A stretch of DNA of 15,389 nucleotides from Macrostomum lignano (taxonomy: Eukaryota): NCBI GenBank assembly GCA_002269645.1, contig NIVC01005257.1, positions 1-15,389 of the forward strand. Reading direction: 5' to 3'. Below the pieces are notes generated by a model that was not told the origin of the DNA, did no database searches, and was given only the letters and a program-made list of their open reading frames with translations. The position numbers and the translations under genes were made by a program. Position 1 is the first letter of the stretch, and every line of letters begins with the position of its first letter. This document shows positions 1,727 to 15,389 of the stretch, piece after piece.

Positions 1727-1901
1727 CACACCGGTACTCCAGAGCTCTATAATTCTAGTAGAGTACTCCAGTACCTAGTATTCGAGTACATAAGTAACTC
1801 AAGTACTGAAATACTCGTGCACTATAAAAGTCCAGTGCTCTGGTACTCCACTGCTTATCAGTGACAGGTTCATGACACAATTAGCGCGAACGGGGACTCA
1901 C

Positions 1902-2048
1902 CAGACAGGTAAGTATTGTGCGACGAATTGATGAAGTAGTGAGCCAAGGGCTGGTCCATGTCTTGGCTGAGGTCAAGCTTGTCCAATGGAATCACATTGT
2001 TCTCCACTGAGATCAGGTAGGCTTGAAGGCCCTGGCTGCTCAGGCGAT
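1902..2048 (-). CDS. PLCB: Phospholipase C-beta exon, end of EF-hand region and start of X domain ([50 protein letters not shown])
   Basis: [19 protein letters not shown] is the conserved start of the PLC X domain. Acceptor ccccag|AT at 2049/2048 and donor TCTG|gtgagt at 1902/1901. The exon is 147 nt, phase 1-1, and joins in frame to the 587-744 exon (G|GC = Gly). Confidence 0.93.
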
Positions 2049-2139
2049 CTGGGGTGATGAGGTTCAGGGGCTCTGGGACCCAATTATAACTGTCTTCGTG
2101 TAAGAGGCAGACGCTGTTAAGGATAGATGCAAAAAGAAT

Positions 2140-2378: not shown

Positions 2379-2767
2379 TGATGTAACCACGCTCTGGTCG
2401 CGGATAGGGCATGGGAACTTTTTCGAAAGTGCCTCCTATCCCGTGCACCCTCTGCACAGAGCTGTCGAGACTCGGCCAGGTCTCCGACCGGGCCTGGAGA
2501 CTCCCGCTCTGCTGCACCCCTCCTGCTGCCTTGGTCCCGTCTCTCCTGCCGCCACACCTGCCTTTCCGGAGCCCCTACCCCTTTCTGTACCTCCCCCTCT
2601 ACCCTATCTCTTCTGTTCCCGCCCTATTCTTCCTGTACTTTCTCTACTTCCTCCTTTTTTTGTCTCCCTCTGCACTCTTTTCCTGCGCTGTCCCCTCTTT
2701 CCCTGTGTCTACTTACAGTACTTTGTGTGCTCACCGTCTCCCCATCCCCTCTCAAACTCCCAAACGG

Positions 2768-3315
2768 TGACGCAAGTCGTGTGACCCCTTCTCCCCCTCG
2801 GTGACTCATCGATGACTCATCCCCCTCTCTTGCGCAACCTTTTCTCACGCTATTGTTCTCCTTCCCAAATTTCTCATGTGACACCCACCCCACCTCCGCT
2901 TCTATTGTTCTCGTTTTTGCTTCTTTTGTTCTCTCGACCCCCACCAATTATCACATTTTCTCCGATTTTCTCTTTCTTTTGTTCTCGTTTTCGCACCTAA
3001 TTATCACCTTTTCTCCAATGTTTACTTTTCCATTGTTCTCAGTTTTCCCCAATTATCCCCGATTTCCAATTCCTTTGTTCTCGACCCCAGCCCTATTGTT
3101 CTCAATGTTTGCTTGCGCAACACTTTCGCGACCACCCGCTGCGCCAATTATCCCCCACCCCACCTCCGGATTGCGCAATTTCCCGATTTCTCATGTTGCT
3201 ATGCCGGTCTCATGCTTCTCATCATGACTCATTCTGACGTCATTCTGCCGGCAGCCAATCAGAGAGAGGGAGCCATGGTAACGACCTTGAGGAGGCGGCT
3301 GTGAGGTCTATAAAA
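2768..3315 (+). promoter_or_regulatory. LTR U3 enhancer/promoter: AP-1, CRE, C/EBP-type palindromes, CCAAT box and TATA box (copy also in the 3' LTR)
   Basis: TGACTCA at 2802, 2813, 3225; TGACGTCA at 3235; TTGCGCAA at 2830, 3113, 3171; CCAAT at 3255; TATAAAA at 3309-3315. Confidence 0.7.
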
Positions 3316-3643
3316 GGAAGCGATTTCGGCATGAGAATACTCAACTGAGTTTATCTCTGTTCCTCTCCTCGTCCTTCTTTGGACTTGCTGTCAGATTGAG
3401 TTCTGACCCATTCGTCTATAAGACGAATCCCTGCCGGTCCGCGGTCTGTTACCGCCAAGTTATCCTTAGCTCCCCAAGTGAGCTCGCCTATCGGCCAGCG
3501 GTCTGATACCGCCCAGCATCATCAGCATCGCCTGATCTACATCAGCGCCTCGTCGCTCCAGCGCATCGCCGCTTCACCGTCTGCCTGACTGCAGCCTACA
3601 GCCGCCCTCGGTCACTCCGCCTCTCTCTCTCTCTGTGCAGCTG

Positions 3644-3652
3644 CCGGTAAGT
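3644..3652 (+). other. Consensus 5' splice donor CCG|GTAAGT in the LTR, ~300 nt downstream of the predicted transcription start
   Basis: Donor consensus followed by an AT-rich, intron-like stretch. Confidence 0.55.
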
Positions 3653-4594
3653 TCCTGCTACTAATTTGTGCTCTAATTGCCTTTGCTTATCCGGGGTTTG
3701 CCTATTTTCCATTGTCTGATTAGAGAGCTGAGCCAATTGTGATACCGTATCTTTTGCTGTATTTTACTCAATAGTGAAGCCGCCTAATTGCCTGCTTATT
3801 TGCCTAAGGGCCTAATTATTAACTATTAACTAACTTCATCATTATTCAATCTTTCACCATCATTTCACTCATGGCTTGCTAAGCCTTTCCCCGGGGTGGC
3901 AAAGCATAAGGAAGTTTGGGTAAGCTAATGGCCTCTCCCCGTGCAAGCCCGCCTGTGAGTGCGTGCTGCGGGGCCGCGTGTGCGTGCAGTAGAGGGATTA
4001 GCGAGTCTTGGCACAGAATGGCAGTAGGAAGGTTGCAACCCCATGCTAACGCGTCCCTTCGCCCTGAGCAATCTAAACTGTAGATAGTACATGTTCGCCT
4101 CATACTACTCTTAGTAATCAAAGTCGCAAGTCAGCCTCGCTCACAGCCACAAAGGATCCCCTGCTGAGAAATCCTCCAGGATTGAGCCCAGAGTTCCCGA
4201 TCATGCCCCAAGCAGAGTCCCTGTACTCGGCTGCATGCGTCTCCCCTGTTAGCCTAAATCCCCTGGTAACCAATCCAGGCGGGGCTCTAGCCTCGAGAGG
4301 TCTGGTAGAAAGATCCAGGTGCGCCAGGTCACATAGAGTGGTGGCAGCCACTCGGTCATACCATGACCGAGTGACCAACTATTGCACCTTGGCTACAGGT
4401 GGGGTCCATGTGGGTCCTTGGCCCTCTGGTCACGAAGCGCTACCAAAGCTACTAATCATGTGGGCGGGACAGTCTGGTGCTGGAGGTCCGTCAGGTCATT
4501 GCCCGGTCATAGGCAGCCTACGGTCATTGCCCCCTCTAGCCATGCGTTCGTCTCTCTACGGAGCGGACAGGCGACAAGGGCGGTTACATCAAAA

Positions 4595-4612
4595 TGGTGG
4601 CAGCGGTGGGAT
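4595..4612 (+). other. Primer-binding site complementary to the 3' end of tRNA-Leu (AAG/UAG type)
   Basis: TGGTGGCAGCGGTGGGAT is the reverse complement of ATCCCACCGCTGCCACCA, the 3' 18 nt of metazoan tRNA-Leu(AAG/UAG) including CCA (tRNA sequence recalled, not searched). It starts 3 nt after the LTR end. Confidence 0.9.
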
Positions 4613-6962
4613 CTGGTGCAAACAGCGCTGAGTTTCGGACTGGTGGTTTAGATGTGACAAGCGCACCTGTGGCATCCCTCAGAATGGTGGCCGAAGCGCA
4701 AAGAGTGCCATGTCTAAATCTACCAATCGTAAAAATCGCCAATCGTCATTCTCTTCCCCATGGCGTGAGGCAACAAAATCCAAAAATATTAATGTAACTT
4801 TTCAAATTTTTCGGGCTGCGAATTCGTTCAATTCATTCGAAATTTCCAAATTCATTCATTCGCCAAAAGCCCCTGATTCAATTTAAAATTAATTTAGCCG
4901 ATCAGTTTCAGCGCTAGAAAGTGTGAAGTGGTAGACGAGCGGATTTGATTACAATCAGAATAGCTACCTGGTAACGGAGTGTGTGAAGAACTGCGAAAGT
5001 GAATTTTCCGGACTCACTTTCTATTTCATGGTAATATGCTTTATTTCCCCTCCCTTTCTTTCTCTCGCCTAGCCTACAGCAGAACTGTGTGAGTGTTGAG
5101 GTGGACAGCCAGCCAGGTACGGAAGCCTCATCACGCAAGCACAGGGAAGCTGGAAGCGAAGCATTTCTTTCCTTTGTCCTACCTCTTTCTTTTACTCGGG
5201 GGAGTGTAACAGTCGCTCTCCCTGATCGCTCAGTTAATCCTAGAAATGCGTAGAGACCGGAGCGTGTTTTGTTTGTCCATTAGAATGAACAGCTATCAAG
5301 GGCTATGGGGAACTCGCTATATATGCATAGTAAGGGAAGCAGTAGTCATGGCCTTGGAAACATTGGGGGATACCAAAGTCTCGCAGGAATGGGAATAGCG
5401 GTGTGATTGTATCTCTGTAGGGTATCAGTGTGACTCAAAAATCTCGGGCTAAAAAAAGTGTCACCTCCTATGGAATACCTGCGATCAGCCCGGACCTGAA
5501 TTCTGCGGTAACCCCTGGTGCCTTCATGGCTGGGATTCGATCCCAACGTGTCTGCTGACTCTCCCCACTGTATTGCAGACCCGGTAGTAACTGCTTTGGT
5601 TGCATTTGGGCTGGTGCAGTGGCTGGAAATAGTAGATCCCATAGTATCCTATTGATAGTGGAGTTCAGTGAGTATTGGAATGGTGTACTGGAAGTCTGGT
5701 GGCCCCCAGTGATCTCGTAATGTTTCCTGCTGCATTCTCCTCCTTTAGTAATTCCTCCCCCCTGCTGTCAGTCTGATAGGGGAGGTGGGTGTGCCAATCA
5801 GCCCGACCCGGTAGAACGGCGCTCCTGCCCGACTTGTCAGCCTGGCCCAGGAAGGCGCTATTGCGCAACTCTTTTCCCCTCTGGCCACTGCAGCCCACTA
5901 AGCGCTTAGACGCAGGGTTGCATGCAGTCCCCTAATGTAAAGCCCCGGTACATAGAGTGCCACCCCAGTGCCCCGCAAGGTCAATAAGACGGGTTGACGT
6001 CTCTGGCAACTTGGAATAACCTAGATGGAGGTACCGCTGTCTCCTGGTAGAACCGGGCGTTCAAGTACAGTAAAGTGGAGAGGCTGACAACTGTAGGACT
6101 TTCTCCGCCATCAGATAAAGGTCCCAAGTATGCTATTTCGAGCTGCAGCAAAGGTGGAGTATCGGAGGGGCAAGCATTTCAGGAAGATACTCACTTAGGT
6201 CTGTTTATCCTAGGAAAGCGGGCGAGAGTTTCAGGCTTGTAATCCGCCTAACCTGAAAACTTCGGGGACAGTTTAGTCTGGACTCCCGCTGCGCGCCTTC
6301 GCTCTGAACAGAAGGGGGAGGTCTTGGTTTTTGTGGATTCTGCTAGACGTAGGGGAGCTGGATTCCCGCCTTTTGTGAAGCTGCGTGTACAAGATTGGTA
6401 GTCCTGAGGTGGAAGCCCCACTGGACTCCGACGGTTTTCCGGCTGTGCAAGGGCAGTAAAGTGGGAGGACCTCCATGGGGATTGCTCCCGCCACTTGGGT
6501 TTTTGGGTCCAGGCGCCAACGCTTCTTCGTAGTAGCTTTCTTAAGGAAATGGGGTCCGGCGCGCAACCCTAGGGGAGAATTTGTACAGGTGCCGTAAGTC
6601 CGTTTACGGTCGGCATTTGGGTTCCCTAGCATGGCCGCAAAATGAAGGTCAAGTCTCTCTGAATAGCCAATTTTTCCCTGTCAGGATGTGCCATAGACAA
6701 CTGGTAGTGGTAGCCGCAGTTTGAGTCAGTGTGCTTTGCCGAGTGAAGCCGTTAGGACTGCCTAAATGGAATTATGTGGAGCCACCCGTTTTTCAATTTG
6801 TTTTCTTCGACGCCGCAAGTGTGTGGGTTTTGTCTGTGTTGTGTGTGTGTGAGTGTGTTTGTGTGTTTCGGATCAACTTTTCGGTCTTTACCTGTAGTTG
6901 TCCCGGTTTTCTTTTCTTTTCCTTCCCGGTAGTGGGTACTCCCCCAGCTATCCGGCATTCAC

Positions 6963-8404
6963 ATGTCACGGGCGCGTGGAGATAGGGTCGTAGAAGCTGT
7001 GTGCGCAGACGCCCCTGGTCAACCACCCTCGGCCGCTGACACCCCAGCAGTTGCCGCCCCCGCAGCCGCAATGGCCGCAGCCGCTGGTAACCAGGTCCCT
7101 CAGCCTCCAGAAGCAGTAGTAGTTGAGGAACCAGATGAAGGAGTAGCAGCTCCCGCTCCCAATCAGGGTGACGCAGCAGCCGCCGCTGCTCCCCGGACGC
7201 AGCCCAGAATCCTCCTCAGGCAGTCCCGCAGCTAGGAGACTTAGTTGCGCTATAGCCAATGCGTTTAACCAGCTAAACATGGGCCAAGACGCCCAGAGGC
7301 CGAAAATCTACGTAGAAAGTTCTCTCCCGGCGAACACTGTTTTGTGCAATGGGTAGAGAGAATGATCTACAAGCTGGACGCGGAGAGAACTGTAGGAGAT
7401 CAGGCTAGGAAGCAGGTGCTCATCTCGCACCTCCCAGGTGAATTTCAGAACTTAGCCTTAGGATTGGACGGGCAATTGCCCTTTGAGCAGTTCGTATCTA
7501 GATTAGGAGAGCAGTTGGGCGAGGCCAACACTGATCTGGCTAAGAGAAATAAGCTGAAGAATCTGAGCCAGAAACCCGGCCAATCACATAGTGCTTTTGC
7601 TGCTATGATAAGATCTCAGATAACGGCCATGTTTCCTCAGATTCAGGGTGAGCAGAGAGAACAAGAAATCGTGTACACCTACTTGGAACACGCTAAGCTC
7701 CCCCGCCAGGTCAGACAAGATCTGTTGAGCCGTCGCTGGCAGACAATTGAGCAGGTGTTAGAACAGCAGCAAGCCCTGTTAGAAGCCGCAGACTTAGCCG
7801 GGAAATGGGACAGTAGTGGCCCGCCCAGGTCTGAGTCCCGCACCGAAGTCCGTCTGCAACCTCAGCAGCCACCCAGGCCCCCTCGCAAGTGGGTCAGGAT
7901 GGTGAACCAGGAAGCTGACGAGACGGAGGAGGACGGTGACGGCCTATCAGAGATGCAAGAGAGGTTGGGCGCGCTAGAGCAAACGCAAAAGGATCTGCGC
8001 AACCAGCTGGTGCAGCTCAATGAAACTATGAAGGCGACAGCAGAGTCTGTTGCCCAGCTGCCCCAGCAGATGAGGCCCCCTCGCCCCGCCACTCCCAACA
8101 GGAACTGGAGGCAGGGGCAGGGCGGCTCTAATAGCAGTAGGAACTGGCGCCAACCCCAGCCCCGCCGCTTGCAATTCAGGAGGCGCCCACGCCGCCGGCG
8201 CCGGGTGTGCAGCAGCAGCAATTGCAGCTTCGTGCGCCACCTGATCGCCATAGGCAAGATTTAGAGGAGTGGGGCAGAGATATGTTAGACGAGGCTACCA
8301 GGGAGAGGCAGGAGAGGCTCGCCCAGCTGCGCGCGCAAGCTCTGATGCCTCCTCCTTCCACGCCTGAAGAGCCCCCGGGTTCGGGAAACCCGTGGGAGGG
8401 CTGA
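6963..8404 (+). CDS. gag: Gag (Ty3/gypsy-type capsid), reconstructed across four apparent 1-nt deletions (~7193, ~7250, ~7317, ~8160)
   Basis: Reconstructed ...RPKIYVE(K)FSPGEHCFVQWVERM...NKLKNLSQKPGQSHSAFAAMIRSQITAMFP matches the retrotransposon gag pattern (L-x-Q-x-x-x-E/Q-S-x-x-x-F). It is followed by a coiled-coil-like segment and a Pro/Gln-rich tail ending SGNPWEG*. Each ORF fragment is offset by -1 from the previous one. Confidence 0.8.
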
Positions 8405-8445
8405 ATGGCCCGGCCCGAACTCAGCCCCGTTCCCTCTCTAGGGCC
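8383..8445 (+). other. Programmed -1 ribosomal frameshift signal: slippery heptamer G GGA AAC plus downstream stem-loop/pseudoknot
   Basis: The heptamer at 8383-8389 is in the gag frame. After an 8-nt spacer, GGGCTGA (8398-8404) pairs with TCAGCCC (8421-8427), and loop GGCCC can pair with GGGCC (8441-8445). The -1 frame is the protease frame and has a stop just upstream of the heptamer. Confidence 0.78.
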
Positions 8446-8907
8446 CAGCTTAACCTGCCACGTCCGCCCAGCAAGAAGTTTAGATTTGAGAAGGTACCCG
8501 ATTTCTATCAGCCAAGACCAGCTGGAGGACAACGCGGGAGAGATATTGTTGTAGAGTTGCCAATTGAGAATGTTCCCACCCGCCTCCTGGTAGATGGGGG
8601 CAGTGCGCTGTCTTTGCTAACAGTCAAAGACTTTACTAAAATTACCGGACAGAGTGTGGAGGCCCTGGAGCCCCCATGTGTGAAGGCCGTGTCCTACACG
8701 GGCAATGAATTAGAGATGCTAGGCCAGGCCACCCTCACAGCAGTTATTGGGCTAGAAGAGGTGAGAATCCTCTTTCTGGTCGTTGGCAATTCAGCAGCAG
8801 TTTCCCTCCTGGGTAGTGCTTTTCTAGCCAGTACGCATGCTATCATAGACTATCGAACAGAAAAGGTTTACTTGCTAGGTGTGAGTCTCCCATTCGACCC
8901 CCGCTGA
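8383..8907 (+). CDS. Retroviral-type (A2) aspartic protease, likely expressed as a Gag-Pro frameshift product
   Basis: RLLVDGGSALSLL active-site motif, later SLLGSAFL (ILGxDF-like) and AIIDY motifs; TGA stop at 8905-8907 directly after the domain. Confidence 0.85.
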   Translation, partial: GKPVGGLNGPARTQPRSLSRAQLNLPRPPSKKFRFEKVPDFYQPRPAGGQRGRDIVVELPIENVPTRLLVDGGSALSLLTVKDFTKITGQSVEALEPPCVKAVSYTGNELEMLGQATLTAVIGLEEVRILFLVVGNSAAVSLLGSAFLASTHAIIDYRTEKVYLLGVSLPFDPR

Positions 8908-9432
8908 GTAACAGATCGGTAGCTAGCCAGTGATTGCTTAATTCCCCCCCCCGATTCGCGTGTCGAAATTTTGCTCGTGTTGCCCCGTTGGAGACCGCTT
9001 TTCGCGTATTTACGTATGCCCTCTATTACTCGAATTTATGTTGTGACCTCGTGCTCGTTGGTGTTGTTTAAATATCTAAGATTTTAGCTCTAAGCTTCTA
9101 TGGGTCTGCTCCACAGGAGGTCCTGCCCCGCTGTTTAAGATTTTCTGGGAACAATGGAAGTCTGGGACCGTAGGAAATTAGCACCTTTAGGTCTGATTTC
9201 GTGTGTTTGTTCACACTTTGTGAAAGTCCGATTTTGGGAAACTTTTAATTGGTTTCGATGAGGCAATAGGGGGGGGGCCTTCAATGTAATTAAGTTTATC
9301 AGACAAATGGGGCAGCAATTAGTTTAGAGTAGGCCAGTGGTTTAGTCAATGTAAAGTCAGGTAAGTAATTAAAGTCAAGTTATGGGGACAGATAGTTCAG
9401 AATTAGTAAGTAAGCATTAAGAACCACCAGCA

Positions 9433-9839
9433 TCAGCAGTTGGGAAGCCGCAGAAATAGCTCCAAGAGCAGTAGCCAGTGCATTGTGAGACCGGCTATTA
9501 GGGCCGTCGACAGCACGACCAAATGCCAGGAGCCGTCGGTCTCCACCACAGGGGTTGGCAAGGGCTGTGGAGCGGCAGCCACGGGCGTCACCGCGGCGAC
9601 CGGCGGCGGAGCGTGCGCTCGGGCTGACAACGGCGGTGGTACCGGATGCCAACCGGCCCCGGACGCTGGTTCGCTGGCGGCCCGGCGGTCGCATGGCCCG
9701 GGAGCCGCGGCGCCTATGCCACCAGATGGCGCAGCCGGCCCAGAATCAGAGGGGGCGTCCGGCTCTGAATGGCTGTCTTCGGGCGCTTCGTAGTCGGACT
9801 CCTCTTCAAGGATGGGCTCGGCTACTAGCGGCCGGAATC
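9433..9839 (-). CDS. Putative terminal coding exon of an antisense gene: acidic/Pro-Ala-rich stretch plus hydrophobic C-terminal tail (134 codons, FRPLVAEPILEEESDYEAPED...WHLVVLSTALIAGLTMHWLLLLELFLRLPNC*)
   Basis: Acceptor ttctcattttcag|GA at 9840/9839 with a pyrimidine tract and CTAAT branch-like motif upstream. The frame is closed by an intronic TAG just upstream and stays open to TGA at 9433. Possible ATTAAA poly(A) signal at 9244-9249 on the minus strand. Confidence 0.5.
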
Positions 9840-9930
9840 CTGAAAATGAGAATTTAAGGGATGAAATAGAAGTAGGGAACTAGCCGGGTATTAGGATGTA
9901 GATAGATGGGGATTTTAACTTTATGGCGTG

Positions 9931-10222
9931 TGGTAGTGGCCTTCCTGGGGGTTTCTTCCTTTCTTCATTCCCTCTCCTTCCTTGAGCTCTAGGTGATCAA
10001 GTAGTGGTAGCCTTCTTCCCCGCCTTCTTTTAATGATACACCTCTAAGTGATGGCAGTTTTTCGTCTTCCTCTCCTCTGGTAGAAGGGCAATTGGTGGCA
10101 GTTTTCCCTAGCAACCTCTCTCAAAATGGTGGCTGATCCTCCTTTTCTTTTCTTTGGTAATGCGCCAAGATGGTGGTAGGTTCCCCTTTCTCTTTTATAA
10201 TAGTACATCAAACTGGTGGCAG
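9931..10222 (+). repeat. Array of seven motifs (mostly C/TAA-N1-2-TRRTGGYWG) separated by pyrimidine tracts, ~44-bp period, resembling the LTR-end/PBS junction
   Basis: Cores at 9931, 10002, 10049, 10093, 10127, 10171, 10214. TACATCAAACTGGTGGCAG (10204-10222) matches TACATCAAAATGGTGGCAG (4585-4603) at 18/19. Confidence 0.65.
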
Positions 10223-10558
10223 TCAAATTAATGATTAATTCCTCTTTCGAATTCTTTCGGCTGTTAAGTTTATGAGGGTCTCGGAGGCATGGATGAGAAC
10301 TGCGTGCGCGTGGCGTTGAAGGAAGAAATCGAAGGGAGTTGGGCCGCATCATCATTTATCCTCCGGAGTCTAATCTCCCAAATCCCTCTTCTATTCATAT
10401 TAACCAAATTAATTTGTGTGCCTGATCTGAATGTGTGCATGTGAGGTGGGAGTGCGATCTCTGTCGGCTGGAGTACGGATCTGCCGCGGGCGCGACCGGA
10501 GGTGGTCTCGGGTCTGCCCCCTGCTCACAGGTGAGGAAACAGGAAGCGGCGGAACCAG

Positions 10559-10676
10559 CCAATCAGAGCGCACGGAGACTAGAGCGAGCGGTCCCAAGCC
10601 AACGGCGACCCCGGCCGCAGCAGGTGTGCCTCCCAATGTGCTCAACCAATGGGAAGCCAGCCCCGGCACTATAAGA
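10559..10676 (+). promoter_or_regulatory. Internal Pol II-like promoter for the 449-aa ORF
   Basis: CCAAT at 10559, 10633 and 10646, and TATAAGA at 10670-10676, ~95 nt upstream of the ATG at 10769. Confidence 0.55.
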
Positions 10677-10768
10677 AGACCCACGCCTGCCAGAGCTGGA
10701 AATCATCAATCAGAGAAATCATTCTGTCCTTCAATCGCTGAAGCATTCTATGAACTATCCAGCTTGAC

Positions 10769-12118
10769 ATGGACACGAAGCCTACCATCAATCGAATTCA
10801 GCTATGCTCCAGCTTACCGTCTGAGCGTCCTGCCAGCCCAGTTAGCCGAAAGCGGCCCCGTGACGCCATCCAAGAGGCGGAGGACGGCCCCGAGCCGCCA
10901 GCGGCGGCCTCCGCCAGGGTCGAAGAAGGTGACGAGACAATCGACCCGGCCAATGCTGGGGGCGACACCGCGGACATTTCGGACATGGCGGCCGAATTCG
11001 GCGAGGCGGCCCGCCGCCTGCGTGATGTTCTGCCCAACAGCCGCCGAAGTGTGGACATCGCCCTGCAAAGAGAAGAAGTCGATTGGGGTCAGGTGGCTGG
11101 CGAACCTTCGGCGACAGCTATGGATCTGGTGCACTGGGTCGGGCCTGAGTCCTATCATGGCCCACTCCAGGCCGAGGACAGGCATGCGACTCTAGAGCGC
11201 CAACTTCGCGACAACCTGGACCGGCCCTGTCTGCTCATCCTGTCAAAAGCGGCCCTGCTGGGATTGGTTGACAATACGCTGTTAATGTACATCGAGGCAG
11301 CGGCCCAGAGCGCCTACAAATACGCCCTCGGCGACCTAGTCCGGCAGGCCGCCAAGTTCCTCCGCAAGGTTGTGGATGAGGAACCATCACACCTGACAGC
11401 CCGGCCGCCGTCCTGTGCCCCCATCACAGCAATCTTCAGCACCTGCGATCGGCCGGTCTACAAGAAGGTGATCATCAGCTGCGCAGCCTCCTCTCAGATG
11501 ACTAGACAACTGACACCAACCCAGAGAGCCCGGCTATTGATTGGCCTGGCCAGCTTGGCCAGCCGCTGGGGCATGCTTCCTGCGGACCTGCCAGGGCTGC
11601 TCTGGGGCTTCCTGAGCGAGGGCGCCGAATGGGAAGAGGCTCTCGTCATCCACGACGGCATTCTTGCGGCCTCCGCGCCGGCCTCTGCGCCCCTCCTCTA
11701 TGCGCCGTTTGCCACAGTGGCCTGGGCCGCCACTCTCTCGCAACGGTTCAATCGCCGCTGTGGGTGGGTGTTGGCGGCCCTGGGCGACGTTGAGCCCGGC
11801 TACGCGGGCCTGGCCGAGGTGCCCCGTGGCACTTTGCAGCATTTTGCAATCGCGCAGCCGCCCCTGTCTGCACCAACTCTGACACGGCTGCAACAAGTAC
11901 GGAATGCGGCCTTCGTCGTCCAATGCCAAGCCCTGGGCATCCCGACTCTGCCGCAGTTGAGGGGCGTGCTGCGCAACGACATCTTGCCTAGCCGATGGCA
12001 CCGAGTGGTGCTCACGGCCGCGGCAGCCCAACGTTATGTGGAAGCATGGGCAAGTGCCATGGCTCAGGTGGCGGCATATGGCCCGTACCAGCTAAATCAA
12101 GAGGCCCATTTCGAGTAA
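10769..12118 (+). CDS. Intact 449-aa ORF of unknown function (cargo gene); acidic/disordered N-terminus with an RKRPR NLS-like motif, Ala/Leu-rich helical body
   Basis: Uninterrupted GC-rich 1350-nt ORF with ATG-G start, upstream promoter motifs and an AT-rich 3' region (AATATA then GT-rich sequence near 12270-12290). No motif I recognise. Confidence 0.75.
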   Translation: MDTKPTINRIQLCSSLPSERPASPVSRKRPRDAIQEAEDGPEPPAAASARVEEGDETIDPANAGGDTADISDMAAEFGEAARRLRDVLPNSRRSVDIALQREEVDWGQVAGEPSATAMDLVHWVGPESYHGPLQAEDRHATLERQLRDNLDRPCLLILSKAALLGLVDNTLLMYIEAAAQSAYKYALGDLVRQAAKFLRKVVDEEPSHLTARPPSCAPITAIFSTCDRPVYKKVIISCAASSQMTRQLTPTQRARLLIGLASLASRWGMLPADLPGLLWGFLSEGAEWEEALVIHDGILAASAPASAPLLYAPFATVAWAATLSQRFNRRCGWVLAALGDVEPGYAGLAEVPRGTLQHFAIAQPPLSAPTLTRLQQVRNAAFVVQCQALGIPTLPQLRGVLRNDILPSRWHRVVLTAAAAQRYVEAWASAMAQVAAYGPYQLNQEAHFE

Positions 12119-12459
12119 GGATGCGACTGCCTGCTGAGCGACGTCCGCCGGCCGGTCCGACCCGCCTTTCCGCCCCCTTGCGTTGTGTGTTTGTCGTGTG
12201 TGTGTGTGTGAAATTATCCTATTAATATTCGGTTCTTCCATAATATTCATTTTTAAACTTTAATAACCAATATACGAGTCATTGTTGTGTCATTATTCTA
12301 AAAATTCCTAAAAATGGCTCTGTGTTGGCTGCTCACTACTTTTACCGTAAGAAAGGCCATATATTATTACTGCAATTGGCTCAGTTTAAAACGAAAGGCA
12401 TGGCGAGTGGGTAGATTTCGTTTAACGTATAGGCGAAAGGAAATCAGGTTGGTGATGGG

Positions 12460-12572
12460 ACTTACCGAGTAGTTGTATAGTTTGGAAAATCGCGCTGAGT
12501 GCCTTGGTTGGAAACTGCGACTCCGTGTAGGTTGCAGGCAGCCGGCTCCCGTTATCAGTGGCGCCTTTTATA
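12460..12572 (-). promoter_or_regulatory. Antisense TATA promoter plus short non-coding first exon ending in a consensus splice donor
   Basis: Minus-strand TATAAAAGG (+ strand 12564-12572) in GC-rich context. About 100 nt downstream is CTCG|GTAAGT (donor at 12466/12465), with no ATG in between. Confidence 0.5.
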
Positions 12573-13158
12573 CAGTGGCCAGCGCACGGCGCGGCGCCTC
12601 CCAGCCTACAACCGATCGCCCCGAAGCCCTCTGACTGGCTGAAGCGGGGTCCGAGCCTTCAAGGACGCTAGGCCTCCGTGCGGTTGAACTCCCGGCGAAA
12701 TTAGCTTATTAATTTACTGCGCTGCATTAGTATTTTTCCCCTGTGTAATCGTCATTCTCCCGAGGCTCTGCCCTTGGCTGTGTGCTAGCAACCCTTCCCC
12801 CCTTCTTTTTCCCCACTTCCCTCACCCTTCCCCGTTTCCTCTCTTTCCCAGCTGCGCTTCTATCCAATTATGATAATTTATTGTTGACAATTCGCTATTT
12901 TTCTCCCTACTATTGCGCTGTCTGTGTTTCCCCCCTCCCACTTTAGCCACAGCAACAGTTGAAATTTTTGAAATTCTGTATTGCACTCCAACCTATGTAT
13001 CTCGTTTGTGAATTTATTGCTATCCCCTCTATTTTATCGCCTTTTTCCATTCCCGCTCGCGGTTTGTTAATTCTGTGATTTCACGTTCGGTTGAGATCCC
13101 GCTCCCGTCTGTGTGGTTCCATGTTGGGCAGTGATGATGACGGAACCAGTTCCGTCAC

Positions 13159-13174
13159 AAAAGGCAGTGGGGTG
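13159..13174 (+). other. Polypurine tract-like sequence AAAAGGCAGTGGGGTG abutting the 3' LTR
   Basis: 13 of 16 bases are purines, immediately 5' of TGATGTAACC. Confidence 0.7.
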
Positions 13175-15389
13175 TGATGTAACCACGCTCTGGTCGCGGG
13201 ATAGGGCATGGGAACTTTTTCGAAAGTGCCTCCTATCCCGTGCACCCTCTGCACAGAGCTGTCGAGACTCGGCCAGGTCTCCGACCGGGCCTGGAGACTC
13301 CCGCTCTGCTGCACCCCTCCTGCTGCCTTGGTCCCGTCTCTCCTGCCGCCACACCTGCCTTTCCGGAGCCCCTACCCCTTTCTGTACCTCCCCCTCTACC
13401 CTATCTCTTCTGTTCCCGCCCTATTCTTCCTGTACTTTCTCTACCTCCTCCTTTTTTTGTCTCCCTCTGCACTCTTTTCCTGCGCTGTCCCCTCTTTCCC
13501 TGTGTCTACTTACAGTACTTTGTGTGCTCACCGTCTCCCCATCCCCTCTCAAACTCCCAAACGGTGACGCAAGTCGTGTGACCCCTTCTCCCCCTCGGTG
13601 ACTCATCGATGACTCATCCCCCTCTCTTGCGCAACCTTTTCTCACGCTATTGTTCTCCTTCCCAAATTTCTCATGTGACACCCACCCCACCTCCGCTTCT
13701 ATTGTTCTCGTTTTTGCTTCTTTTGTTCTCTCGACCCCACCAATTATCACATTTTCTCCGATTTTCTCTTTCTTTTGTTCTCGTTTTCGCACCTAATTAT
13801 CACCTTTTCTCCAATGTTTACTTTTCCATTGTTCTCAGTTTTCCCCAATTATCCCCGATTTCCAATTCCTTTGTTCTCGACCCCAGCCCTATTGTTCTCA
13901 ATGTTTGCTTGCGCAACACTTTCGCGACCACCCGCTGCGCCAATTATCCCCCCACCCCACCTCCGGATTGCGCAATTTCCCGATTTCTCATGTTGCTATG
14001 CCGGTCTCATGCTTCTCATCATGACTCATTCTGACGTCATTCTGCCGGCAGCCAATCAGAGAGAGGGAGCCATGGTAACGACCTTGAGGAGGCGGCTGTG
14101 AGGTCTATAAAAGGAAGCGATTTCGGCATGAGAATACTCAACTGAGTTTATCTCTGTTCCTCTCCTCGTCCTTCTTTGGACTTGCTGTCAGATTGAGTTC
14201 TGACCCATTCGTCTATAAGACGAATCCCTGCCGGTCCGCGGTCTGTTACCGCCAAGTTATCCTTAGCTCCCCAAGTGAGCTCGCCTATCGGCCAGCGGTC
14301 TGATACCGCCCAGCATCATCAGCATCGCCTGATCTACATCAGCGCCTCGTCGCTCCAGCGCATCGCCGCTTCACCGTCTGCCTGACTGCAGCCTACAGCC
14401 GCCCTCGGTCACTCCGCCTCTCTCTCTCTCTGTGCAGCTGCCGGTAAGTTCCTGCTACTAATTTGTGCTCTAATTGCCTTTGCTTATCCGGGGTTTGCCT
14501 ATTTTCCATTGTCTGATTAGAGAGCTGAGCCAATTGTGATACCGTATCTTTTGCTGTATTTTACTCAATAGTGAAGCCGCCTAATTGCCTGCTTATTTGC
14601 CTAAGGGCCTAATTATTAACTATTAACTAACTTCATCATTATTCAATCTTTCACCATCATTTCACTCATGGCTTGCTAAGCCTTTCTCCCGGGGTGGCAA
14701 AGCATAAGGAAGTTTGGGTAAGCTAATGGCCTCTCCCCGTGCAAAGCCCGCCTGTGAGTGCGTGCTGCGGGGCCGCGTGTGCGTGCAGTAGAGGGATTAG
14801 CGAGTCTTGGCACAGAATGGCAGTAGGAAGGTTGCAACCCCATGCTAACGCGTCCCTTCGCCCTGAGCAATCTAAACTGTAGACAGTACATGTTCGCCTC
14901 ATACTACTCTTAGTAATCAAAGTCGCAAGTCAGCCTCGCTCACAGCCACAAAGGATCCCCTGCTGAGAAATCCTCCAGGATTGAGCCCAGAGTTCCCGAT
15001 CATGCCCCAAGCAGAGTCCCTGTACTCGGCTGCATGCGTCTCCCCTGTTAGCCTAAATCCCCTGGTAACCAATCCAGGCGGGGCTCTAGCCTCGAGAGGT
15101 CTGGTAGAAAGATCCAGGTGCGCCAGGTCACATAGAGTGGTGGCAGCCACTCGGTCATACATGACCGAGTGACCAACTATTGCACCTTGGCTACAGGTGG
15201 GGTCCATGTGGGTCCTTGGCCCTCTGGTCACGAAGCGCTACCAAAGCTACTAATCATGTGGCGGGACAGTCTGGTGCTGGAGGTCCGTCAGGTCATTGCC
15301 CGGTCATAGGCAGCCTACGGTCATTGCCCCCTCTAGCCATGCGTTCGTCTCTCTACGGAGCGGACAGGCGACAAAGGGCGGTTACATCA
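13175..15389 (+). repeat. 3' LTR (2215 bp)
   Basis: Differs from the 5' LTR by 2 substitutions and 8 single-base indels by my manual comparison; ends GGTTACATCA at the last base of the window. Confidence 0.96.

Follow-up and report, generated by a model that had tools for sequence, protein, structure and literature searches.

An uninterrupted open reading frame (ORF) of 449 codons stands near the 3' end of an LTR retrotransposon, in a region where pol and env would be expected. Is it a gene, does it belong to the element that carries it, and what could its protein do? The window analyzed here, a stretch of 15,389 nucleotides, contains one whole LTR element (2379-15389, about 13 kb). An original prediction had described the ORF as a self-contained orphan gene in place of pol and env, possibly encoding a transactivator or an anti-silencing factor, a role that is an analogy. 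It also named a captured viral or host gene, for which no source could be traced.

Results

A young LTR element without detectable pol

1882..2088, minus strand: phospholipase C-beta-like exon of the host (Pfam PI-PLC-X; PLC-beta-3, E 6e-14)
2379..4591, plus strand: 5' LTR of 2213 bp with TG...CA ends and a 10-bp terminal inverted repeat; a motif scan finds CCAAT at 3255, TATA at 3309 and a splice-donor motif at 3647
4595..4612, plus strand: primer-binding-site (PBS)-like 18-mer, 3 nt past the 5' LTR, beginning with TGG
4613..6932, plus strand: long leader (2.3 kb), ending at a strong splice-acceptor motif at 6932, shortly 5' of the first gag-like ATG (about 6965)
6933..8404, plus strand: gag-like region, four overlapping frames in the window, with a coiled-coil C-terminal part
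8368..8907, plus strand: frame of a retropepsin-type protease, with entry at a slippery motif, GGGAAAC (8383), and a stop right after the protease
13158..13174, plus strand: purine-rich tract, an imperfect polypurine tract (PPT), abutting the 3' LTR
13175..15389, plus strand: 3' LTR, pairing with the 5' LTR; the window stops at its last base

The two LTRs (2379-4591 and 13175-15389) differ by 2 substitutions and 8 gaps (99.5% identity), indicating a recent insertion and an LTR age near zero. The PBS-like 18-mer may correspond to tRNA-Leu. No Rfam or tRNA match was found within the element, and the motif scan found no heat-shock element. Because a phospholipase C-beta-like exon adjoins the element, the host is an animal, and the element probably lies within an intron of this host gene, in antisense orientation. 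Putative phospholipase C-beta-like exons are seen on the minus strand at 600-760 and 1882-2110; the profile match belongs to the second. Minisatellites with a period of 19-21 bp occupy host introns at 1-338, 771-1726 and 2140-2378, and the element was inserted at the end of a 21-bp array.

A profile scan of all 89 stop-free frames of at least 48 aa between the LTRs matched no reverse transcriptase (RT), RNase H, integrase or env family, in agreement with the prediction that the ORF stands in their place. The scan is not very sensitive, since it also missed the protease at E 0.01, and badly decayed remnants could escape it. We conclude that the element is non-autonomous. Its clade cannot be fixed, because there is no RT-RNase H-integrase match on which to build an RT tree, and it is hence called gypsy-like here.

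The protease frame matches retroviral-like aspartic protease 1 (E 2e-7); its match to Pfam gag-asp_proteas (E 0.0067) falls below the cut-off. No stable structure was found 3' of the slippery site (z -0.43). The region upstream is called gag-like on the basis of its position and a general resemblance: its frames gave weak coiled-coil matches only in Pfam, matched no Gag capsid profile, had no homolog that could be found among longer proteins and displayed no CCHC knuckle.

We compared the window over 2379-13174 with contigs of four public runs, guessed to be RNA in three cases and of unspecified type in the fourth; such contigs carry neither strand nor transcription start, and their depth is no copy number. 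According to the original prediction, the 449-codon ORF was the only long frame without breaks. It is indeed intact, but the protease frame (179 aa) and one gag piece of 331 aa are stop-free as well. Moreover, the runs that cover gag differ there from the window by small indels at full depth, so that the breaks in the gag frame may have arisen during assembly or be peculiar to this copy.

Several further observations concern the part of the element upstream of the ORF. Splicing from 3647 to 6932 would excise the PBS and the leader, so that mRNA and packaged RNA would be distinct; the joints listed for the four runs include none of this kind. In all four, the LTR (2379-4591) is present in many variants and at a depth far exceeding that of the internal region, perhaps reflecting many solo LTRs or other internal types, the latter perhaps including an autonomous partner. 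The three RNA-like runs lack cover at 4899-7058, which run X6 covers; cover begins at differing positions and no joint spans the gap, so that gag splicing or 3' bias is hinted at weakly at best. Within and just past the protease, contigs break or end loosely at 8641 and 8942-9015, which may point to relatives with another continuation, such as pol. At 9090-9096, about 68 letters present in all four runs are missing from the window. Plus-strand splice-donor consensus motifs lie at 9361 and 9406 in the AT-rich spacer 3' of the protease, with no use seen.

The ORF has distant homologs, one of them full-length

10769..12118, plus strand: ORF encoding P0001, ATG to TAA, 449 aa, with a low-complexity tail (aa 1-100) and a conserved core (aa 103-433), member of an orphan family

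The other five frames across the ORF contain 9-14 stops each. Among second-order Markov sequences, 449 aa were reached in 16 of 300 with the composition of the ORF and in none of 300 with that of the region. The length by itself is thus only suggestive, and homologs decide the coding status. A search of 1.84 billion proteins yielded three matches, of which P0002 (E 2.8e-21) and P0004 (E 6e-5) are unnamed Logan proteins. The P0002 cluster contains a full-length member, P0005 (437 aa, on a contig of 1650 nt), which is 33% identical to P0001 over 341 aa (aa 103-433; pairwise E 8e-42) and scores 141 bits, where 500 block shuffles reach no more than 28.1. The third match, P0003, was rejected as a homolog: it is a bacterial TPR protein in which a 39-residue repeat match was counted seven times (34.7 bits, shuffle maximum 25.8). 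Independent relatives of P0001 therefore number two, one cluster of two and one fragment, and they are known as sequences without genomic context. We regard it as nearly certain that the ORF is a real protein gene, in line with the predicted intact frame.

Given these homologs, the ORF is not an orphan in the strict sense. It has no named family, however, in Pfam, PHROGs, NCBIfam, PDB sequences or the ESM Atlas. A word-indexed search of 5.8 billion proteins matched neither P0001 nor alignment A1; this search is insensitive here, because the known homologs are in the searched collection. No locus related to the ORF was found in viral contigs, metagenome contigs or prokaryote genomes, and none related to gag and protease in viral contigs. 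P0001 and its relatives constitute a small protein family not described before.

The ORF region is present in 20 of 24 listed runs, from six studies and one organism, none of them recorded as RNA. Among the listed contigs of all four compared runs, from four studies, residues 1-446 are free of substitutions. In three of the four, the contigs exceed the window by one base over the ORF block. The fourth, run X9, excludes this difference from 10219-12107 and 12125-12443, which by exclusion points to 12108-12124 as the probable site of the extra base and leaves the last ORF codons unconfirmed. Because the copies are young, their intactness says little on selection. By contrast, the retention of full-length homologs at 33% identity indicates that the ORF family has been under selection somewhere.

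A probably soluble protein with a conserved core

P0001 and P0005 follow the same plan, a loose tail and then a conserved core, in which Pro, Trp, Leu, Gly and Arg are best kept. Common to both are His139, Asp151, His295, Asp340, Cys386, His411 and Arg412. The view that the protein is not env-like was borne out. The hydropathy profile of P0001 contains no signal-like or strong transmembrane (TM) stretch (19-residue maximum 1.71; N-terminal 9-residue maximum 0.79), the corresponding maximum of P0005 is 1.45, neither N terminus is hydrophobic, and neither protein matches an envelope profile in Pfam.

The original prediction also read a basic motif and an acidic tail as signs of a nuclear protein. 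RKRPR is present at aa 27-31 of P0001. Four K/R within five residues, however, arise in 544 of 10000 shuffles of aa 1-100 and in 1005 of 10000 shuffles of the whole protein; P0005 has no motif of this type, and acidic residues do not prevail in its tail (9 acidic, 9 basic). Neither feature therefore supports a function. In the P0001 core, aa 101-230 contain 13 basic and 18 acidic residues, and aa 231-449 contain 17 basic and 13 acidic residues. Structure models were too poor to support fold searches, with a pLDDT of 37 from the single sequence and 46 from four sequences; the C-terminal half, which is better predicted in the latter, is mixed alpha/beta. Foldseek searches with the pLDDT-46 model returned nothing at E 0.001. 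The best VIA-align hits of this model (Z 6.2) were small helical bundles and are uninformative.

A promoter-like module and a possibly variable block

10559..10676, plus strand: promoter-like module, CCAAT at 10559, 10633 and 10646, TATAA at 10670 (TATAAG)
10750..10767, plus strand: upstream ORF of five codons, ending one base 5' of the main ATG
12119..12330, plus strand: 3' region, GT-rich and then AT-rich, without a canonical polyadenylation hexamer
10249..12413, no strand assigned: variable block comprising promoter, ORF and 3' end, between contig branch points at 10248/10271 and 12414/12577 in four runs
10020..10225, plus strand: degenerate cluster of LTR-end/PBS motifs at the left edge of the block, with a copy at 10202 (4 mismatches in 22) and weaker copies at 10037, 10115 and 10159

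The predicted combination of three CCAAT boxes with a TATA box withstood comparison with shuffled sequence. When the 8.6-kb internal region was shuffled 1000 times (block-wise dinucleotide shuffles), a module of this kind arose once, on either strand; 1000 shuffles of the 250 nt 5' of the ATG produced none. The TATA pattern in these comparisons was chosen after the site was seen. A 13-mer around the first CCAAT is common to the module and the LTR promoter (0 of 1000 shuffles). Judging from the motif, this internal promoter is probably used. The 3' end is AT-rich, as had been noted, but neither AATAAA nor ATTAAA occurs 3' of the ORF, where only AATAAC (12262) and AATATA (12269) are found. Similar GT-rich stretches are located 5' of the gag acceptor (6824-6855) and 3' of the ORF (12179-12211).

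Contigs of all four runs branch at both edges of the block. Its depth was lower than that of the right flank (22 vs. 44, 46 vs. 90, 45 vs. 72 and 188 vs. 309) and, overall, somewhat lower in relation to the left flank (22 vs. 33, 46 vs. 70, 45 vs. 25 and 188 vs. 207). In run X1, at least 255 unlike letters join at 12577. No joint simply deleting the block was among the joints listed. These contig paths hint that sister elements may hold other sequence in the same slot, and the block would then be exchangeable. Its content is just the promoter, the ORF and the 3' end, which supports a self-contained module.

The cluster at 10020-10225 comprises about six copies of an LTR-end/PBS core, each followed by a pyrimidine run, and the runs have an extra stretch near 10089-10108. 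One might speculate about a recombination scar, YY1-like sites or tRNA-fragment decoys.

A spliced antisense RNA overlaps the ORF

9840..10817, minus strand: antisense GT-AG intron with consensus donor and acceptor, deduced from a contig joint of run X13 that has CT..AC ends (depth 31; one of four runs)
10818..11063, minus strand: antisense exon part overlapping ORF aa 17-99, with a Met-initiated frame of 80 codons; acceptor motif at 11063, use not seen
9433..9839, minus strand: antisense downstream exon, open for 134 codons past the acceptor, rich in Pro, Ala and acidic residues, with a hydrophobic C-terminal stretch
12460..12573, minus strand: candidate promoter of the antisense RNA, with TATAAAA at 12572 and a donor motif at 12465

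The antisense intron spans the complement of the ORF promoter and start. Depth in run X13 is 31 for the spliced form, which equals or exceeds the 20-25 of the unspliced path. Since its splice donor sits inside the ORF, the antisense RNA overlaps the gene, and for this reason RNA cover of the ORF is not readable as sense expression. The claim of a self-contained gene is thus upheld in part: the block edges match the contig branch points, but the only strand-informative RNA signal over the ORF is this minus-strand splice. The HBZ RNA of HTLV-1 is likewise spliced.

The 80-codon frame is in phase with the 134 codons, giving a total of about 215 aa, and the C-terminal stretch of the 9433-9839 frame reaches a 19-residue hydropathy of 2.02. 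The antisense frames have no Pfam match. The combined frame, for which there is no homolog evidence, may be non-coding.

Discussion

We put at roughly 85% the probability that the ORF is accessory cargo of its LTR family. It would then be an ORF3-type accessory gene, carried by a young and non-autonomous family of Ty3/gypsy-like LTR retrotransposons in an animal. In the mechanism we propose, the element, which keeps LTRs, PBS, PPT, gag and protease, would be transcribed and packaged, and would borrow RT and integrase from a partner. The 2.2-kb block with its LTR-like promoter (CCAAT and TATA) would produce a separate mRNA of about 1.6 kb. Its product could be a soluble regulator, acting in trans and possibly in the nucleus, which would aid expression of the family by activating the LTR or by blunting host silencing. 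The spliced antisense RNA may damp the overlapping ORF or encode a second accessory protein. Because a non-autonomous element dropped pol yet kept the accessory gene, it is suggested that the ORF helps the element itself.

Regulation of the element's own expression by the ORF protein is a tentative proposal, to which we give somewhat less than even odds. By analogy, it ranks first on position, promoter and precedent, and not on a motif in the protein. Against it, no family, fold or DNA-binding motif was found that links the protein to regulation, the nuclear localization signal (NLS) and acidity are not kept in P0005, and the core sequence is not basic. The sole strand-informative RNA over the ORF is antisense, and the homologs lack a genomic context that would place them in LTR elements. 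Finally, the precedents for such regulators are proposals, except in retroviruses.

An alternative, which we consider unlikely, is that the protein is a captured enzyme (a nuclease, hydrolase or modifier) serving the element, similar to the DEDDy and GDSL ORF3s of rotifers. Enzymatic ORF3s are on record (described in part of PMC5408684), the modelled C-terminal half is mixed alpha/beta and better predicted than the remainder, and the seven His, Asp, Cys and Arg positions common to P0001 and P0005 could be read as enzymatic. However, neither protein has an enzyme family in Pfam or NCBIfam or a profile match in PDB, no catalytic motif is recognizable, and the model reaches a pLDDT of only 46.

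It is also improbable that the ORF is merely part of a passenger block from another element, a virus or a host gene, and that the antisense RNA is the one that matters. With an LTR age near zero, intactness of the ORF needs no selection within the family. The LTR-end/PBS-like motif at the left edge of the block is what a template switch could leave, and alternative contig paths at both edges together with the antisense splice agree with this reading. On the other hand, the ORF promoter has the motif of the LTR, and the homologs are full-length at 33% identity.

Rather doubtful is a structural, RNA-binding particle partner that stands in for the missing nucleocapsid knuckle of Gag and might have been captured from a negative-strand RNA virus as its nucleoprotein. 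The absence of a CCHC knuckle from the gag frames would suit such a role, as presumably would the size of P0001, its largely helical core and its loose tail, which resemble these nucleoproteins. The C-terminal half is nevertheless predicted to contain strands, the core is not basic, and part of the family seems to be without the variable block according to the contig paths. No nucleoprotein family was found in Pfam at E up to 1 for P0001 or 10 for P0005, and none in PDB with a profile. LTR elements have taken env genes from negative-strand RNA viruses (reported in part of PMC5408684).

An accidental or shadow ORF, arising from a high GC content, is very improbable: the DNA is 63% GC, composition-matched simulations do reach the length (16 of 300) and recognition by a protein language model is low, but the other frames are closed, and the full-length homolog far above shuffles largely refutes this reading.

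Going beyond the accessory-gene reading, an ambitious interpretation would be an invertebrate LTR lineage with a complex-retrovirus-like organization but without pol and env. It would combine a swappable cassette with its own promoter and a new family of trans-acting proteins, labor being divided with an autonomous partner. A spliced antisense gene, overprinted on the loose tail of the protein, would oppose or supplement it. We regard this as a long shot. LTR retrotransposons often carry extra ORFs, and these are hardly ever understood; an intact and young ORF, present in multiple data sets and with diverged homologs, is a testable case. Should its product activate the LTR or suppress silencing, it would represent a new type of counter-defense protein of animal transposons, and the overlapping spliced antisense RNA would parallel complex retroviruses.

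Relation to known elements

Extra ORFs are a known kind of feature, and it is the protein family of P0001 and the layout that are new. The original prediction would have been contradicted by a match to a well-known accessory family of transposable elements. Pfam gave no match to the TRP28, Athila ORF1 or rotifer ORF3 types. We did not find this layout described for an animal in open-licence papers. In its available part, PMC13524379 concerns env only. Three motifs of the window are absent from the supplementary files of the survey in PMC12801592, which, as far as its available part describes, starts from RT and would therefore miss this element.

The plant elements Athila and Tekay carry extra ORFs, some with an NLS (PMC11728184, in part), and a regulatory role has been proposed for the extra ORFs of Retand, of which some recently active elements are non-autonomous (PMC11963269, in part). 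Together with Grande, they resemble the present element in having a long region before the 3' LTR with function-unassigned extra ORFs in sense and antisense orientation, according to the available parts of both sources. In contrast, the host here is an animal, neither the ORF nor the antisense frames match TRP28 or Athila ORF1 in Pfam, the ORF has a separate CCAAT/TATA module, and a spliced antisense RNA runs across part of the sense gene.

The available part of PMC5408684 describes ORF3s of bdelloid rotifers that encode env, GDSL, DEDDy or TM proteins in elements with full pol. The likeness lies in invertebrate gypsy-like elements with non-env ORF3s that vary among families and are common to different retroelements. 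Here, by contrast, pol is absent, and neither P0001 nor P0005 matches an exonuclease, an esterase or another rotifer ORF3 type in Pfam. TR-GAG elements of plants are smaller than 4 kb and recently active, with a single ORF and with LTR, PBS and gag but no RT or integrase (PMC4350172, in part). Membership in TR-GAG was rejected for the present element, which is 13 kb long and has a protease and extra ORFs.

Foamy virus has an internal promoter and the transactivator gene tas/bel-2, encoding Tas (PMC7828637, in part), and HTLV-1 has the antisense gene HBZ, as told in the available part of PMC11963269. Shared with them are an accessory gene near the 3' LTR, an internal promoter, which is putative here, and an antisense transcript over the region. 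The present element differs in having no pol or env and no sequence match to them; this is an analogy of layout and not kinship. Among animal gypsy elements, micropia of Drosophila hydei has an internal antisense promoter with antisense RNA facing RT (PMC2615633, in part), and Burro of planarians has accessory ORFs, which are recognizable domains in or beside a giant polyprotein (PMC6431247, in part). The 18-mer of the PBS also occurs at 121-138 of L002, a contig of the viral collection, near the contig start and outside any tRNA gene, where it is perhaps the PBS of another retroelement.
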